DNA from: an uncultured virus (IMG/VR IMGVR_UViG_2061766007_000865)
Lineage: Duplodnaviria; Heunggongvirae; Uroviricota; Caudoviricetes
IMG/VR virus record: IMGVR_UViG_2061766007_000865
Reading direction: 5' to 3' (one strand)
Length of the DNA stretch: 59,745 nt
Part shown: positions 38,535-48,747 of the stretch, one piece after another
How positions within the stretch are numbered: the first letter of the stretch is position 1
Layout of the letters: the number at the start of each line of letters is the position of its first letter
Program-made: the position numbers and the translations under genes
The notes under the pieces: model-generated
The model's database searches: none
Told to the model about the DNA's origin: nothing
What the model saw: only the letters and a program-made list of their open reading frames with translations

Positions 38535-38899
38535 TTTAAAAAGTCAAAGGAACATCTAAGTTAATACTATATATTACCGTAGAATACGCTCAAACAGCTA
38601 CGTTTAAACCTCATTCATCACGCAGAGGCAATAATATACTTTCTATGTCTAGCTCTCTTTGACTATGGTGGGACCATAGGGATTCGAACCCTTTCCTTGG
38701 TGCTATTACGCCCTTCTATCAGATTTCCTACTACAACTATCTATTACGTAATTCAATAGAAGCCTCAGAAAACATAGTGTGCCATACCATTAACTCACAC
38801 AATAATCCCCATTTATTGGTAATGCAAAGATATAGAACTTATTTGAAAAAACCAAATACTTATCCCAATTATTAACATTAATTATAGGATGTTAACAAA

Positions 38900-39322: not shown

Positions 39323-39613
39323 AAAGGTATCCTCTTAACCATCAAGGAACTAGAGCAAGGGGCTAATCCTCGCACCGCATTACTGCTTACCTGCCATTTC
39401 TTACGTGGCTTGCGCTGTCTCACCTATTTCAGCATCCACTATGGATGNNNNNNNNNNNNNNNNNNNNNNNNNNNNNNNNNNNNNTCTGACTAGGCACATT
39501 AACCATTTTTGCTAATCCCCAATGGGGCAGACAACCTCATTACTGCCATCCTCACATTTAGTCACCCCCCAAACATGAGTTTTATGCCATTATGACAAAG
39601 GAAAATGGTTGCG

Positions 39614-39699
39614 TGAGCGTAGTGGGATTCGAACCCACGTAGCCTTATTGCCATAATAGTTTTAGAGACTATCCCAATTGACCACTCTGGCATACGCTC
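39614..39699 (-). tRNA. amber suppressor tRNA (anticodon CUA) with long variable arm
   Basis: Acceptor GAGCGTA/TACGCTC-A; anticodon arm ATAGT-CT-CTA-AA-ACTAT; T arm GTGGG-TTCGAAT-CCCAC. Confidence 0.85.
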
Positions 39700-40209: not shown

Positions 40210-40551
40210 ATGCCCATATTGATTGTTTTACTTTATGAATATGCTATCACCTACACGATATGACTTATTTGTGTATAATTCATATTCATATACACCTCTT
40301 TTGTTTTGTATTTTAACTACCACATGATATTTTTTGCCATTGTTATTAAAGTAGNNNNNNNNNNNNNNNNNNNNNNNNNNNNNAGTTACGACTACATCAT
40401 CACAACTAACAAATCCCAATGCTGTGCATAGAATTACCATGAAACTATATAACACAAATTTCTTCATATTGATTACCATAAAATTAAATAATACAAATTT
40501 CTTCATATTGCAAAGATACGAAAAATAATTGAAATACTCAAATTATTTAAG

Positions 40552-40962
40552 TTAATCTATGTTAACATAATATGTTCCTACTTGCTTTTTAGTCTTTCTT
40601 ACCAAAGATAAATCATGTTCTCTCTCACTTGGGTCATACACAAACAATAATTCACCTTTTTTTCTATTACGCAATTTAAGAGTCAATCTATGTGGTTTTG
40701 TGACTATTGTTTGTTTGAAACACCCAACATCGGCAATCTTCCATTCCATTGAGCCATATAGTTTATTGCATCTATGATAATCGCTATGAACTATTTCTTC
40801 ATCTAAATATGTTTCCTCACCTAGAGGAAATACAACATCCTTAGAGACACTCACTTGGTCGGCAATTCTAGAACCATAGTCGGTAATTTTAACAATATCA
40901 CCTATTGAAAATTCTAAATAATCCTTAGTTTGAATTCCACATTTTGTTACTATTACTTCCAT
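40552..40962 (-). CDS. hypothetical protein, distant member of family C
   Basis: FSIGDIVKITDYG...WKI...LRNR. Confidence 0.6.
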   Translation of the reverse strand: MEVIVTKCGIQTKDYLEFSIGDIVKITDYGSRIADQVSVSKDVVFPLGEETYLDEEIVHSDYHRCNKLYGSMEWKIADVGCFKQTIVTKPHRLTLKLRNRKKGELLFVYDPSEREHDLSLVRKTKKQVGTYYVNID

Positions 40963-40966
40963 AGCT

Positions 40967-41350
40967 TCAATATGACATTTTATTTGGTATAACGCCCCTC
41001 ACACCACCCCTAGGATTCTCACAATCACCATTATAGCGTGGTATGATGTGTATGTGACAATGCATGATGGTTTGCCCAGCAGCCTCTCCACAATTAGTGC
41101 CTATATTAAATCCATTTGGGTGATATTTGGCGCATAGTATTCTCTTAACAATACCAATTGTCACACCAAGAGATTCAAGCTCAAGAAAATTCAAATCAAA
41201 ATATGTCTCACAATGTCTCTTCGGTATTAATAATGTGTGACCCTCTGAAACTGGATATCCATCCAACATTGCAATCCAAGTTGAATCTTGATATATTATC
41301 CTAGATTTATCAATCTTCTCTTCTATATCACAAAATGTACAACCATCCAT
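40967..41350 (-). CDS. HIT family nucleotide hydrolase
   Basis: CTFC, PVSEGHTLLIPKRH, GFNIG.N.G.AAGQT and HCHIHIIPR. Confidence 0.92.
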   Translation of the reverse strand: MDGCTFCDIEEKIDKSRIIYQDSTWIAMLDGYPVSEGHTLLIPKRHCETYFDLNFLELESLGVTIGIVKRILCAKYHPNGFNIGTNCGEAAGQTIMHCHIHIIPRYNGDCENPRGGVRGVIPNKMSY

Positions 41351-41591
41351 AAAACCAAATCTTTTTCATATTGCAAAGATATAAAAAAATATGAAAATAA
41401 CCAAATTTTTCTTGTTAAAAAAAACAAAAAACGTCATAAGCCACNNNNNNNNNNACAGTGCCATAAGTTTGGTATTTACGCAACGCTAAAATTACCCAAA
41501 TGGCGGTACGTATGGATGAAATGTCTCGAACATTTTGTCAAGCCATTGCCGACTTTTTACGTAGCAACCGATGAACATCCATATATAAATA

Positions 41592-41742
41592 CAAAAGACT
41601 GAGAACATTGTCTTATTGTAGATGCCATTTCACAGTGGTTGGACACTGCTGTTCACACGCTACCTTACGATAGCNNNNNNNNNNNNNNNNNTGAAAACAA
41701 CCAAACACTTACTAGTTTAAACCTTTTTAGGTACAGCATCAT
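41592..41742 (-). ncRNA. 3' fragment of GOLLD-like large RNA (possibly the misplaced end of copy B)
   Basis: Near-identical to 44970-45130, with a compensatory change CAGTG/CACTG vs CAGAG/CTCTG; ends at an N-gap. Confidence 0.6.
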
Positions 41743-41758: not shown

Positions 41759-42058
41759 TTAGTCTTCGGTAACAACCTTCAACCTTTTGAATAGCTCTTC
41801 GTGTCCGAAAACTGCTAGAGCTGTTACTTTGAAATCGAGGTCAGGTTCTTTGAACTCTGTATACTCAACATCTAAGTTTTCTAGCCTTCTCCTCCACTTA
41901 GGTACATCAGCACTTAAGTAAATCAAATATTCATTTTGCCACTCTCTACTGTGAGGATGTTCTAGCATCCATTGCGCAACTGCATGACCACCTTGTACGC
42001 ATCCGTACACTAGTTTGAGCGACTTGTCAATCAAAACGTATAACTTTCTCTTCTCCAT
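41759..42058 (-). CDS. peptidyl-tRNA hydrolase type 2-like protein
   Basis: KLYVLIDKSL...QGGHAVAQW...EFKEPDL...TALA pattern. Confidence 0.6.
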   Translation of the reverse strand: MEKRKLYVLIDKSLKLVYGCVQGGHAVAQWMLEHPHSREWQNEYLIYLSADVPKWRRRLENLDVEYTEFKEPDLDFKVTALAVFGHEELFKRLKVVTED

Positions 42059-42435
42059 TACTCTTCTGTTGGGTCTGCATACTTGTTATACACCTTGATT
42101 ACTGCGTTCTTGAATGCTGGGATAACATAACTCTCGGTCATGTCACCACCGCTTACACCCCAACGACCACTGTGCAACATCTTGTAACAACGGTTTCTAA
42201 CCTCATCCTCAAGATATGCATCACGGTCTGCACCCTCGATACGATGCTTAAAAATGTAGTAAGCTACATAGTCAGAATGGTCTTTATAAGTCTCTGACTT
42301 AATGAATTCCTTAAACTTAAGATACTGTTCTCTAGTGGTTTCCTTGTCTGTAAAAATTTTCTTTGCCATATTAATATATTCTTTAATTTGTTTGTTATTA
42401 ACTAATGATTTTAACTTTCTCACTACTTTTCCCAT
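42058..42435 (-). CDS. hypothetical protein (start may be MAKK at 42369; in frame with the upstream amber-interrupted leader)
   Basis: ORF translationally coupled to the Pth2-like gene. Confidence 0.65.
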   Translation of the reverse strand: MGKVVRKLKSLVNNKQIKEYINMAKKIFTDKETTREQYLKFKEFIKSETYKDHSDYVAYYIFKHRIEGADRDAYLEDEVRNRCYKMLHSGRWGVSGGDMTESYVIPAFKNAVIKVYNKYADPTEE

Positions 42436-42536
42436 CCAAATTAAGAATACATCAGGACCACGAATCAGTTTCAGCTACGTTGCATTTCCATTGTAACACA
42501 CAATTTTCATACTTTTTACTTTTTTATTAATATTAT

Positions 42537-42770
42537 GTTGTATTTCACTGTAATACTAATACCACATACAGCTTGTTCCTCCTAGTAAAGGAGATGTTTA
42601 TGGTTGTATTTCACTGTAATACTAATACCACATACAACTTTTTCTATTAGTTTATCTGTATTGTCATAGTTGTATTTCACTGTAATATACATACCACATA
42701 CAACTAAGAGGTTTTAATTATGCAGAGAAAGAACGTTGTATTTCACTGTAATATACATACCACATACAAC
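42537..42770 (-). CRISPR. CRISPR mini-array: 4 x 36-bp repeats, 3 x 30-bp spacers
   Basis: Repeats at 42537, 42603, 42669 and 42735 read GTTGTATTTCACTGTAATA(CTA/TAC)ATACCACATACA(G/A)C. Spacers are all 30 bp and unique. The degenerate repeat is the one distal to TnpB; orientation is inferred. Confidence 0.95.
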
Positions 42771-42976
42771 CTATCCAACATAAGTTGTTTATTATCAGTG
42801 ATTTGTGATGTGTATTACGTCCGAAAAATCACTTCTTCGGTGGCAGGATGACCACTTGTCACCCACTTTTTCTGTTTCATCCAAGCACTACTTTTTAGGT
42901 TTATTACTAAACGGTCATCCATAGGAGGCTAGTCCACAGACTTTACTTCCCCACTACACATGGGTAGGCACTATTT
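42771..42976 (-). ncRNA. omegaRNA/reRNA-like scaffold plus CRISPR leader
   Basis: Begins at the TnpB stop. 8-bp long-range pair GGATGACC/GGTCATCC (42913-42920 with 42846-42853), hairpins, and an IHF consensus TATCAGTGATTTG at 42793-42805. Confidence 0.6.
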
Positions 42977-44134
42977 TCACTGTTGTGCTTCAGTTAGAAT
43001 TCTATAACCCTCATTTTTGATATTAATTGCAGCGTTTATATCTCTATCAATACGTTCACCGCAATTAGGGCATATCCAATATCGTTCACTAAGTTTAAGG
43101 TTTTGCTTAACATATCCACAATGGCTACAAGTTTTAGAACTAGGAAAAAACCTATCAATCTCAATAACTTTAACACCATTCCAAGATGACTTATACTGTA
43201 ATTTAGTCTTAATGTCATTAAACGAAGACTCTTGTATACTTTTTGCCAAATGATGATTTTTTACCATCCCTTTGACATTTAAGTTTTCAAGGCATACAGC
43301 ACTAGTTCTGCTATCATAAGCAATGTCGTGTGTAACCTTGTCAATGAACGCTTTCTTCTTGTTATTTATATTATTTTCAAATTTAGCTAGCTTCAACCTA
43401 GCTTTTTCTTTATTCCTAGAACCATTTTTCTTCTTCGATAGCCTTCTGCAAAGCATTCTATATCTTCTGTCATCTTTGCTATTGATTCTCAGTGAATCAT
43501 ATTTAGTCCCATCACTAGTGATAATTGAATTTTTAACGCCTAAATCAATACCAACAACGGTATCATATGTGACTTCTCTTTCTTCAAGTGGCTCTGTTGT
43601 GTCTTTTACCAATATTGAGATAAAGTACTGGTTTGACTTGTTATATGATAATGTTGCTTGTTTAATTTCTCCATTAAATTTTCTATGAAGTCTAACATCT
43701 ATCAAACTTGCTAATTTTGGTATCTTCACCTTGTTCTCGCCCCAGAACACTTTAATTCCTTGGTATGTCGTATATGACCCACTGAAACTCCTTTTTTTGA
43801 AGACTGGCTCTCCAACATCGGTTTTAATGCCTTGCTTTCTAGTTTTACAAGCCTTAAAAAAATTACTGTAGGAAGCATCCAAATATGTAGATGTCCATAT
43901 TAGAGACTTTGCATCAACGCTTTTAAGCCACGATGTTTCATTGGCTTTCTTAAGAGAAGGTAAATCTCTAGCTACATTGTATTGACAGCTTAAGTGCTCT
44001 CCAGTCTCTTTAAAACACTTCTTAATTTTATCAAGAGCATAATTGTAAAACCATCTATTAGCACCTACGTTTTGCCTTATAAACTGTTTTTGCTCCTCAG
44101 TTGGATAAATTCTATACTTATATGCTCTTAACAT
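42977..44134 (-). CDS. tnpB: TnpB / compact Cas12f-like RNA-guided nuclease, CRISPR-adjacent
   Basis: HTH start RAYKYRIYPT; RuvC-I GIDLG, RuvC-II CLENL, Zn finger CSHCG/CPNCG and RuvC-III DRDINAA all intact. Confidence 0.92.
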   Translation of the reverse strand: MLRAYKYRIYPTEEQKQFIRQNVGANRWFYNYALDKIKKCFKETGEHLSCQYNVARDLPSLKKANETSWLKSVDAKSLIWTSTYLDASYSNFFKACKTRKQGIKTDVGEPVFKKRSFSGSYTTYQGIKVFWGENKVKIPKLASLIDVRLHRKFNGEIKQATLSYNKSNQYFISILVKDTTEPLEEREVTYDTVVGIDLGVKNSIITSDGTKYDSLRINSKDDRRYRMLCRRLSKKKNGSRNKEKARLKLAKFENNINNKKKAFIDKVTHDIAYDSRTSAVCLENLNVKGMVKNHHLAKSIQESSFNDIKTKLQYKSSWNGVKVIEIDRFFPSSKTCSHCGYVKQNLKLSERYWICPNCGERIDRDINAAINIKNEGYRILTEAQQ

Positions 44135-44834: not shown

Positions 44835-44957
44835 CAGGGATAGCAGGATTCGAACCGACAACCTTTCGTAAACAGTCAAAGCATCAATCTGTTCCGAAGT
44901 CGAGATTGTTTATAGCTTAAATCGAAACGAATTACTCTACCGTTGAGCTATATCCCT
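44835..44957 (-). ncRNA. tRNA-like RNA with ~50-nt insert in place of the anticodon loop
   Basis: Acceptor AGGGATA/TATCCCT with D and T arms; insert contains CAATCTCGAC-TTCG-GAACAGATTG. Confidence 0.65.
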
Positions 44958-44969
44958 ATGTTAAAAATA

Positions 44970-45780
44970 CAAAAGACTGAGAACATTGTCTTATTGTAGA
45001 TGCCATTTCGCAGAGGTTGGACTCTGTTGTTCACACGCTACCTTACGATAGCCGTAGACACCATGCACGGAGGTTTTGCGAAAACAACCAAACACTTACT
45101 AGTTTAAACCTTTTTAGGTACAGCATCATAGATTTCAGTTCTTCGCCAAGCTCTTGCGGATTCACAGGATGCCTCCTGTTGACTCAGACGAGTACTTTTA
45201 CTATCTTGTTGGATTCCTTGCGAGTCCCCAACCCCTTCATATTGCAGAAGGATAAGTGCATTTTAGCTGCCTAGTGTCGCACACTTTTGCTACAGATTAA
45301 ATTCCTTCGAACGTCATAATTTCGATTTTAATGTCCAACGGTTATGGAAGACGAGGTGCGACCCATAGCATCCGTACCTTTTGAGTACAGCCCACTATAT
45401 CGCCTCCCTACAAAGACTCACCACAAGTCCAATTGCTATTATGCCCTATCAGCCTTACGGTTCTTGTGTCTTTCCACACAAGACTAGAACATAACTGAAC
45501 CCAACACGCCAACTGGTGACTATTGCATCGAGTTCCATACGACATCTATTGTGTTGCCACTCAACCAAAGACATTTAGCCCTTGGTAGCGTATGGCTATG
45601 GTGTTACCCACGCCATAAACCGTACCGTATGCTTTTCAGTGAAATACATAGGGTTGCCCCCACATATCTGCAACACCTAACCGCTAATTAGTGTCACATT
45701 TATCCCATCACTGGATTATCCTTATTGGCCACGAAAGCTGGCCATTCTCCTCATTTTCAGCCGAAACCTACGATGTGGGA
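44970..45780 (-). ncRNA. large structured ncRNA, GOLLD-like, copy A
   Basis: ~800 nt without a credible ORF inside the tRNA cluster; homologous to 46252-46990 with compensatory base changes. Confidence 0.65.
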
Positions 45781-47397: not shown

Positions 47398-47778
47398 CAT
47401 TTATTTCGTTTTAACTTTGCAAAGATATAGATAATTTTTTTAATTTCCAAATTTTTTAGGAACTTTTTTTCATTTACTTTGCAAATTCTTTCATCTTTGT
47501 CAATTCAGCTAAGTTAGCATCTATATCCATGTCCTTAATACTAAAGTCGAATGTCTCAGCATCAATCTTGGCTATGGCGTTTGACAAAAACTCTCTCGTT
47601 ACATTCTTAAGAGTCTCATAGTATTTCTTACCTACAATGGCTTGAGCCTCACGCTTCTCGTACCCNNNNNNNNNNNNNNNNNNNNNNNNNNNNNNNNNNN
47701 NNNNNNNNNNNNNNNNNNNNCTTACTCATAATATGTTGTTTTTGTTTAACAATCCAAATATTCTTAAAACGCATTAAG

Positions 47779-48139
47779 TGGACTTGGAGGGAGTTGAACC
47801 CTCGTCACAATTACCGACCCATAAAGGATTATACAAGCTTTTAGAAAATTGGTGAGTGGCAGATGCCACTACTCACCGCCGCCTCATTTTGAGAAAACAA
47901 GGAAAACAAAGGGGGGATGACTAAAGTCACCGATTCCACCATCTAGCACGAAGCTAGAAAAAAAGTGCTAGGATGTTCTGTTCCTAAGAGCCTAGCCTCT
48001 CGGCTCACGCTTACGCAGCTATAGCGTACTCGTAAGCAGGAGAATCTACGTTCTCTGCGTTTATTTTTTTTGCTATTTGAAGTGTATGCCCACTGCTTGT
48101 CCTTTACTAGACGCATAACGTTCTATACCATTCAAGCCC
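47779..48139 (-). ncRNA. ssrA: tmRNA copy 1
   Basis: Acceptor GGGCTTG/CAAGTCC-A with G3.U70; T arm GAGGG-TTCAACT-CCCTC; tag (A)AENVDSPAYEYAIAA*. Confidence 0.9.
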
Positions 48140-48149
48140 ATTATGTTTG

Positions 48150-48400: not shown

Positions 48401-48731
48401 AGATTGTACAAGCTTTAAAGTTTGGAGGGGTGTCAAAGCGCAAGAAACCGCTGGACACTCACTTTCCGCCACCGTGTTTTGTGAAAACAAGGAAAACTAG
48501 GGGGATGACTAGAGTCACCGATTCCACCAGTTAATCTCAATAGACTAACAAAAAGTTGCTAGGATGTTCTGTTCCTAAGTGCCTAGCCACTCGGCTCATG
48601 TTTACGCAGCCATTGCGTACTCATAAGCAGGAGAATCTACGTTCTCTGCGTTTATTTGTTTTTGCTATTTAAAGTATATGCCCACTGCTTGTCTCTTACC
48701 AAACGCATTGCTGTCTAATCCATTCAAGCCC
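48401..48731 (-). ncRNA. ssrA: tmRNA copy 2 (3' end in N-gap)
   Basis: 5' GGGCTTGAATGG; tag (A)AENVDSPAYEYAMAA*; homologous to copy 1. Confidence 0.85.
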
Positions 48732-48747
48732 ATTTGATAAATTTTTG

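Follow-up and report, generated by a model that had tools for sequence, protein, structure and literature searches.

A putative split omegaRNA, with a tracrRNA-like scaffold and a CRISPR-like array, behind a tnpB gene of a Lak-like rumen megaphage

A tnpB-like gene, a structured non-coding RNA and a short CRISPR-like array follow one another on the minus strand of the DNA analysed here, a window of 59,745 nucleotides from an uncultured virus (IMG/VR record IMGVR_UViG_2061766007_000865). They are probably a single-copy TnpB system that a Lak-like rumen megaphage has domesticated, its ancestral omegaRNA now divided between a tracrRNA-like scaffold and an array. In this model, in which RNA ends and processing, trans pairing, cleavage activity, targets and the route of spacer acquisition are inferred, the ~190 nt after the stop codon would retain helices P1-P6 of the omegaRNA core and serve as the scaffold. 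The 3′ end of each 36-nt repeat would now consist of what were the final 11-14 nt of the omegaRNA, ending ACAAC. Segment 42818-42804, just 3′ of the GNRA hairpin P6, would pair with the middle of the repeat, and this pairing would put the repeat tail and the next spacer in the places that tail and guide occupy in an unsplit omegaRNA. Guided in this way, the 385-aa TnpB, its RuvC intact, would cleave spacer-matching DNA beside a TAM/PAM.

The gene (product P0001, 385 aa; 42977..44134, minus strand, stop codon TGA at 42979-42977) is followed by a 206-nt non-coding stretch (42976-42771) and by the array (42770-42537). The open reading frame stops ahead of the scaffold, with an overlap of 0 nt. 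Pfam domains HTH_OrfB_IS605, OrfB_IS605 and Cas12f1-like_TNB were identified in P0001, which is collinear with ISDra2 TnpB from end to end (residues 3-376, E = 1.6e-54). In the protein alignment, D197, E283, D365 and four cysteines were invariant across the family; we take these to be the RuvC acidic residues and the zinc-finger cysteines, respectively. P0001 has the architecture of TnpB (OMEGA, IS200/IS605), with HTH/WED, split RuvC and zinc-finger parts. All 12 readable reading frames in the family were complete, at 384-414 aa. Proteins of loci L009 and L010 carry an insertion of ~20 residues after an LSKKK motif (alignment columns 258-277), absent from the 385-aa window group; those of L033 and L037, which lie outside the alignment showing this insertion, have similar lengths (406 aa). 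An enlarged bridge helix is mentioned for one TranC clade in the available part of a preprint (10.1101/2025.09.28.678669 or 10.64898/2026.03.27.714800). The same neighbour genes flank the module in the window and in the close relative L001. Two small open reading frames (125 and 99 aa; 41759-42435, minus strand) with no Pfam match lie just downstream of the array and occupy the same place in L001.

Judged from the comparison of related sequences, the stretch 42976-42771 is a real omegaRNA-type scaffold, as the preliminary description of this locus had proposed. In an alignment of 14 scaffolds, P1 and P5 were found by RNAalifold, and P2, P3, P4 and P6 were added by the analyst. The covariance model R1 (155 positions) was built from the six-helix structure of the homologous loci; it gave 175 bits for the core in the window (P1-P6; 42819..42971, minus strand) and 148-176 bits for family members. 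Across the 14 scaffolds, 90.7% of cells were paired, compared with 79.6% in shuffles, and 13 pairs had changed on both sides. None of 500 shuffles reached any measure, and slid controls gave 37-47%. In this respect the locus has the structured omegaRNA that TnpB (OMEGA) systems encode where the gene ends or just behind it. The fold of 42735-43030 had a z-score of -0.74.

The helices, all on the minus strand, differed in how much they contributed. P1, found by RNAalifold, is a long-range helix (42885..42969; 42969-42964 with 42891-42885) enclosing P2-P4. Its outer pair was GC in seven sequences, CG in four and UA in three; most of P1, and the whole of P3, never vary and are uninformative on covariation. 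P3 is a 4-bp hairpin (AGUC/GACU, loop UGYG; 42931..42942) whose stem is identical in 14 of 14 rows. P4, a 5-bp hairpin (42899..42912) after the invariant CUAUGGAUGA, showed a compensatory change from U-A to C-G within the close group; 70% of its cells were paired by alignment count, and other lineages have, by eye, hairpins of different sequence there. P5, a 7-bp hairpin (GGGUGAC/GUCAUCC, loop AAGUG; 42846..42864, 42864-42858 with 42852-42846), had changes on both sides in six of seven pairs, with 88.8% of cells paired and all seven pairs kept in 11 of 14 rows. P6 is an 8-bp hairpin with a GNRA-type loop, GUGA (42821..42840); 90.3% of its cells were paired, and it was kept with changes in other lineages. 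Its loop reads GUGA or GCGA in 11 of 14 rows and GCAA in L025 and L030, and L009 has no such loop.

This structure replaces part of the anatomy given in the preliminary description. Its quoted strings are all present on the minus strand (GGATGACC at 42920-42913, GGTCATCC at 42853-42846 and GTAATACACATCACA at 42818-42804), and its CCGAAG/TTTCGG hairpin (inside 42840-42821) is P6. The first two strings had been read as an 8-bp pseudoknot. A perfect helix of at least 8 bp was present in 61 of 300 sequences made by dinucleotide shuffling of this 206-nt stretch, indicating that such a pairing is at chance level. Over the 14 scaffolds 75% of its cells were paired, none of the eight pairs showed compensatory change and the third pair was broken in 10 of 14 rows; the pairing was perfect in the window and three close relatives, and only two of eight pairs were left in L009 and L010. 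The complementarity arises because the upstream block resembles the 5′ strand of P5. GGTCATCC was rejected as a pseudoknot strand, being the 3′ strand of P5, a covarying local hairpin that competes for it, and GGATGACC (42913..42920) is invariant or nearly so in the 14 rows, within the single-stranded CUAUGGAUGA block. The GGTGACA/TGCCACC hairpin whose loop was to hold the pseudoknot (42863-42857 with 42845-42839) pairs at six of seven positions, with one A-C mismatch; at 59.8% of cells paired, it is not conserved. A canonical omegaRNA pseudoknot could not be located by eye, because the candidate partners are invariant. The proposed IHF site (42793-42805, plus strand) fared no better. IHF consensus matches numbered 12 in the window, where 12.1 ± 3.9 were expected, and 48 of 100 shuffles reached 12. 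Its core was kept, by eye, in only three of ten linkers (the window, L001 and L028), which is not the pattern of a conserved leader site.

The kinship of the scaffold was examined with R1 beyond the family. Matches were obtained directly behind a 37%-identical TnpB paralog in the phage genome G002 (45.8 bits), behind a second TnpB copy in L003 (43.4 bits) and in L013 (31 bits). As R1 matches RNA beside transposon-type TnpB copies, the scaffold is homologous to their guide RNAs. Two further scaffold-like matches in G002 (C1:303819-304099 and 311680-311838) lie one behind a truncated, 88-aa TnpB remnant and the other with no adjoining gene. With Rfam, only tRNA and tmRNA reached gathering scores in the whole window, permissive thresholds on 42450-43150 gave three chance-level matches only, and no CRISPR-repeat or omegaRNA family was found in seven related loci.

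Evidence on expression was slight. Sigma-70-type promoter sites were not enriched (11 in the window; 8.9 ± 3.1 expected); one of them, on the minus strand at 43026-42999, is suitably placed for transcription to begin near 42990, but this is not evidence that it does. The locus was present in four metatranscriptome runs from four studies, and in two of them separate contigs span only 42741-42985 and 42741-42971. These scaffold-only contigs, which carry neither strand nor ends, are a weak hint of abundant scaffold RNA. They share a stop at 42741, within repeat 1, and the best explanation of it is that assemblies break at repeats. With a single depth value for each contig, gene and scaffold cannot be ranked, and uncovered parts are uninformative.

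The array (42537..42770, minus strand) has four 36-nt repeats (42770-42735, 42704-42669, 42638-42603 and 42572-42537) and three 30-nt spacers (42734-42705, 42668-42639 and 42602-42573), with a period of 66 nt. The distal repeat is degenerate (it starts GCTG), as is usual across the related loci. The repeats are, by eye, palindromic at their ends and fold alone as hairpins; 36-nt repeats with such ends, together with 30-nt spacers, presumably resemble those of some Bacteroidota class 2 systems. Among 50 spacers from 13 loci, 49 were unique, 44 measured 28-31 nt and six measured 18-21 nt. Direct repeats, together with unique, similarly sized spacers that change from one close relative to the next, are the features of a CRISPR array, and the locus has them; four repeats and three spacers follow the scaffold in place of the single flank-derived guide of TnpB (OMEGA) systems. 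Spacers 5 and 6 of L037, when shifted by one position, have 18 of their 19 nt in common. The only spacer common to L025 and L034 is the scaffold-proximal one, and their arrays diverge beyond it; acquisition at the leader end would give the opposite pattern.

The candidate anti-repeat (42804..42818, minus strand) begins 3 nt after P6 and would pair with repeat positions 18-23 and 7-12. In the window it amounts to two 6-bp helices (GTAATA:TATTAC and ATCACA:TGTGGT), and the first 16 nt after P6 gave a shuffle P of 0.23 (range over tests 0.13-0.28, with 6-7 contiguous bp). The anti-repeat proposed in the preliminary description is weak for the window alone and gains meaning only across the family, where, in each lineage, the bases immediately downstream of P6 are complementary to the central part of that lineage's repeat. 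Helix lengths are 6-7 bp for the window group, 8 bp for L010, 8-10 bp for L033 and L037, 9 bp for L030 and 10 bp for L029. In nine of ten rows the helix end lay 11-14 nt, or in the case of L010 19 nt, from the repeat 3′ end. L009 has an 11-bp helix that uses the 3′ half of its P6 equivalent.

Cognate helix scores for the five repeat classes were 7, 10, 9, 10.5 and 7, compared with a mean of 6.1 and a maximum of 8 for the 20 non-cognate pairs. The cognate assignment was the single best of 120 permutations (combined shuffle P ~1e-4), in a test that is partly post hoc, as its window (-12..+18 around the P6 end) was set after the L009 duplex had been seen; under the first, narrower window L009 scored 4 (no match). 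Co-folding of scaffold with repeat gave a divided result. The duplex at 42818-42804 was recovered in the window, in L001 (15 pairs) and in L028 (19 pairs). Trans pairing was not chosen in L029, L033 and L037, where a partial repeat copy within the linker offers the post-P6 segment a partner in cis. By whole-scaffold duplex energy (duplexfold), the cognate repeat was no better than shuffled repeats in nine of ten rows, the exception being L009. A tracrRNA-like role is the best reading of the scaffold, from the covariation, the kinship with transposon-type RNAs and the cognate test across the family.

In the tail alignment, segment 42784..42803 (minus strand; R0) is repeat-like and ends ACAAC, like every repeat, and at the place corresponding to R0 L030 carries a copy of the 3′ part of its own repeat. 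Partial repeat copies occur in the linkers of L029 and L030. The 13-nt junction between R0 and repeat 1 (42771..42783, minus strand) is partly conserved among lineages (scaffold alignment columns ~243-256) and resembles, by eye only, the 5′ half of the repeat. In L027, which has no array, the 14 nt downstream of P6 form a tail that ends GCAAC, beyond which the sequence is unrelated; in L042, a transposon-type copy, the tail after P6 is short and ends GAAC. Several repeats share with L027 the AAGGUA that precedes this ending. The orphan scaffold of L027 (oriented 558-740; L027:504-686:-) lies directly behind a tRNA gene and is neither preceded by tnpB nor followed by an array.

The association of gene, scaffold and array was found in 13 loci, the window included, on rumen-type phage contigs, with the same order and spacing and five repeat classes. 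This is an effector-array link conserved across relatives, as in TranC and type V-U systems. A 24-nt scaffold motif matched 14 metagenome loci, all of them true; arrays accompany 12 of these, L027 lacks one and L038 is truncated by the end of its contig, and three of the 14 repeat viral-contig loci. The same motif gave no match in 185,579 species genomes. A looser 17-nt motif gave eight matches in viral contigs, five of them unrelated and three true, and was rejected. A protein scan of viral contigs identified L001, whose contig measures 409.5 kb; its gene is 92% identical, its scaffold is near-identical and it has four repeats. Its downstream genes are the same as in the window, and all three spacers are different. 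L009 and L010, at 39-46% protein identity, also have a scaffold and an array.

In a tree of 20 rows (midpoint root for drawing only; L031 and L034 left out), the 11 array-linked proteins grouped in a single clade (100/100 support), with eight transposon-type relatives and L002 outside it. The latter, on a viral contig (750-1150), has a second kind of TnpB and array, with a different, GC-richer scaffold and 37-nt repeats (11-bp hairpin, 73-74-nt period); its protein lies outside the studied clade on a long branch. The 35 protein clusters closest to P0001 (62-93% identity) were all metagenome-only, the only name among them being 'putative transposase' (5 of 35), and identities beyond these were at most 46%. 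At the DNA level, relatives of the window in the phage collection were limited to distant matches in the tnpB of Lak megaphages of Prevotella and of a small number of other phages.

Of the related phage genomes, G001 (409.5 kb, rated 100% complete) has one copy of the array-linked tnpB and one 32% paralog, and neither Y1 TnpA nor Cas1. Judged from G001, the system would have neither the TnpA partner nor the several copies of a mobile element. G002 (335 kb, 96% complete) has, besides the array-linked gene, four other TnpB copies (the 88-aa remnant and three full-length) and a Y1 TnpA. Cas1 (PF01867) was found in none of three related phage records, G001 and G002 among them, with the control positive in 7 of 14 genomes. 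As two near-complete relatives have no Cas1 and 49 of 50 spacers are unique, supply of spacers in trans by host Cas1-Cas2 is possible.

No target was recognised. Searched against the phage collection, the window array gave no credible protospacer (best E 0.07) and the L009 and L028 arrays none. In the window and the other studied loci there were no matches apart from the arrays themselves, and there were none in G001-G003. Against 401 sampled genomes from the family of G005, with two candidates per genome considered, there were 13 single matches, none of them a target: 12 fell within the final repeat plus the A/T-rich DNA that follows it, and the thirteenth spanned a spacer-repeat junction. 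A similar repeat was not found in 401 sampled Bacteroidaceae-family genomes, by a search weakly sensitive for 36-nt repeats.

The module lies among tRNA genes. The window has 22-23 of these (38461-58513), including one with the amber-reading anticodon CTA (39613-39699), and a tmRNA (47778-48139), all on the minus strand; related loci are likewise tRNA-flanked. The CTA tRNA, the tmRNA and the more than 20 tRNAs fit an alternatively coded Lak-like megaphage. A 123-nt tRNA at 44835-44957 was called by Rfam (42.8 bits) and is absent from the ARAGORN list; its extra length suggests an intron or insert. A direct repeat of ~160 nt (41584-41742 and 44962-45129, 95-100% identical, the first copy partly N-masked) brackets the whole module, including the two small open reading frames, array, scaffold, tnpB, a tRNA-Met and the long tRNA-like gene, and could be a duplication or recombination boundary. 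Three repeat families 590-592 nt apart, with 80-90% identity (47871-48142 and 48461-48734), show that much of the tmRNA region is present a second time in diverged form, a copy called by neither Rfam nor ARAGORN. A 57-nt A/T-rich element containing TTGCAAAGATA was found at 38813-38869, 40499-40555, 41362-41418 and 47408-47464. It is located at the upstream (higher-coordinate) ends of the minus-strand genes 40228-40506 and 40967-41350, and on the minus strand it resembles what we take to be a Bacteroidota promoter motif.

Among known effectors, P0001 is much nearer to plain TnpB than to LaTranC, the only TranC compared, since LaTranC aligned only at residues 247-373 (E = 3e-27) and ISDra2 TnpB over its full length. 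Cas12f proteins are larger in size, and the solved ones matched P0001 weakly and partly (E = 1e-10 to 1e-12). The arrangement as a whole resembles TranC, for which 'functional RNA splitting' of an omegaRNA into tracrRNA and crRNA has been proposed (Jin et al., Cell 2025, as given in PMC13565253). In the portions of the sources available to us, TranC systems likewise have a compact TnpB-derived effector, a downstream array, a split omegaRNA/reRNA and no adaptation genes nearby (PMC13565253, 10.1101/2025.09.28.678669, 10.64898/2026.03.27.714800). Their arrays, as described there, are short, with 32-38-nt repeats, as is the window's array with its 36-nt repeats. One of them, CauTranC9, appears in the excerpted preprint text as phage-borne and free of domain expansions (10.1101/2025.09.28.678669 or 10.64898/2026.03.27.714800). 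Types V-U6 to V-U45, as outlined in the accessible sections of Altae-Tran et al. 2023 (PMC10691335), are independent TnpB branches with downstream short arrays, most of them without cas1, cas2 and cas4; the present TnpB branch is similar in its downstream short array and in the lack of Cas1 in its relatives.

ISDra2 TnpB, as far as the available parts of PMC10097598 and PMC8612924 describe it, is similar in domain order and length and in having its guide RNA encoded on the 3′ side; that RNA likewise has several stems, with a short tail ahead of the guide. Here, in contrast, reading frame and scaffold do not overlap, an array replaces the single flank-derived guide, the complete relative G001 has one copy and no TnpA, and the pseudoknot was not located. 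In the ISDra2 complex, as summarised in the text available from PMC10097598, a crRNA-like 3′ segment is joined by a loop to a tracrRNA-like part, and the guide-adjacent tail forms a pseudoknot with an upstream strand. By analogy, the geometry in the window would fit this complex, with the duplex after P6 replacing the lost covalent link. TnpB homologs of 401 and 433 aa with all RuvC motifs and adjoining arrays are reported for viral contigs from landfill, including huge phages, in the part of PMC12607003 available. That part gives proximity alone, whereas for one rumen lineage we describe a scaffold RNA, covariation and a candidate repeat/anti-repeat relation. Our search of the literature on Lak or megaphage TnpB with CRISPR arrays and on TranC returned no paper on this rumen lineage. 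The clade may already be numbered among TranC 1-24 or V-U6-45.

Other explanations of the locus were weighed against the split omegaRNA. The array could be an omegaRNA array that owes nothing to Cas1-Cas2, its units turning over by duplication, recombination or TnpB-linked guide capture and serving in homing or in competition between related phages. The lack of Cas1 in G001 and G002, the six short spacers, the near-duplicate spacers of L037, the scaffold-proximal unit shared by L025 and L034 and the partial repeat copies in the L029 and L030 linkers are all in keeping with this, and irregular omegaRNA-like arrays and serial duplication of omegaRNA segments are mentioned in the accessible portion of PMC10691335. 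However, spacers of 28-31 nt in 44 of 50 cases and unique in 49 fit a ruler-type integrase better than duplication, and no spacer matches the related phage genomes G001-G003; we consider this explanation unlikely. A still less probable one is that gene and array are chance neighbours, an ordinary IS200/IS605 tnpB with its omegaRNA having come to lie beside an unrelated array that serves another effector, for example one of the host. The end-palindromic, self-folding repeats would suit such an effector, and PMC10691335, in the sections available, leaves room for insertion next to a pre-existing array. Chance would hardly account, though, for a constant order and spacing in 13 loci, five repeat classes and one protein clade, nor for repeat 3′ ends that match the tails of unsplit relatives and a post-P6 segment that changes together with the repeat. 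The single copy without TnpA in G001 also argues against it, as does the failure to find a similar repeat in the 401 Bacteroidaceae-family genomes, at the low sensitivity of that search.

The least credible of the alternatives is the anatomy of the preliminary description, with a pseudoknot between 42920-42913 and the loop of the 42863-42839 hairpin and an IHF-bent leader used by Cas1-Cas2. Its 8-bp complement is perfect in the window and three close relatives, and the IHF consensus does match at 42793-42805; against these stand the complete lack of compensatory pairs, the poorly conserved hairpin, the frequency of such helices in shuffles and an IHF motif that is no commoner than expected by chance and persists in 3 of 10 linkers. 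Comparison has already largely refuted this anatomy, and neither the pseudoknot with its hairpin nor the IHF site should be retained. The core interpretation, a scaffold turned tracrRNA-like, is probably right, yet it is already-known biology. A bolder extension of the split omegaRNA model would be a megaphage-only, expansion-free TnpB clade that displays the split in natural stages, has no Cas1 of its own and borrows host adaptation with repeats shaped for acceptance. The stages would be the orphan unsplit scaffold of L027, the scaffolds ending in R0, the fused repeat 3′ part of L030 and the arrays of 2-10 repeats. We regard this extension as doubtful, albeit somewhat less so than the other alternatives. 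If true, it would be a phage CRISPR system parasitising host spacer acquisition, with an effector that, at 385 aa, would be among the smallest natural CRISPR effectors.

The current picture of these systems is unchanged by the locus, because TranC and type V-U systems, including phage-borne ones, have already been described. What the locus offers is a comparative natural series from a transposon guide RNA to a tracrRNA with CRISPR repeats. As the protein has not grown at all, it is a useful test bed for the published model of RNA splitting, and the 385-aa protein itself is a candidate for a very small programmable nuclease. Lak-like rumen megaphages carry such systems inside tRNA gene regions, which raises the questions of what they target and how their spacers are loaded.
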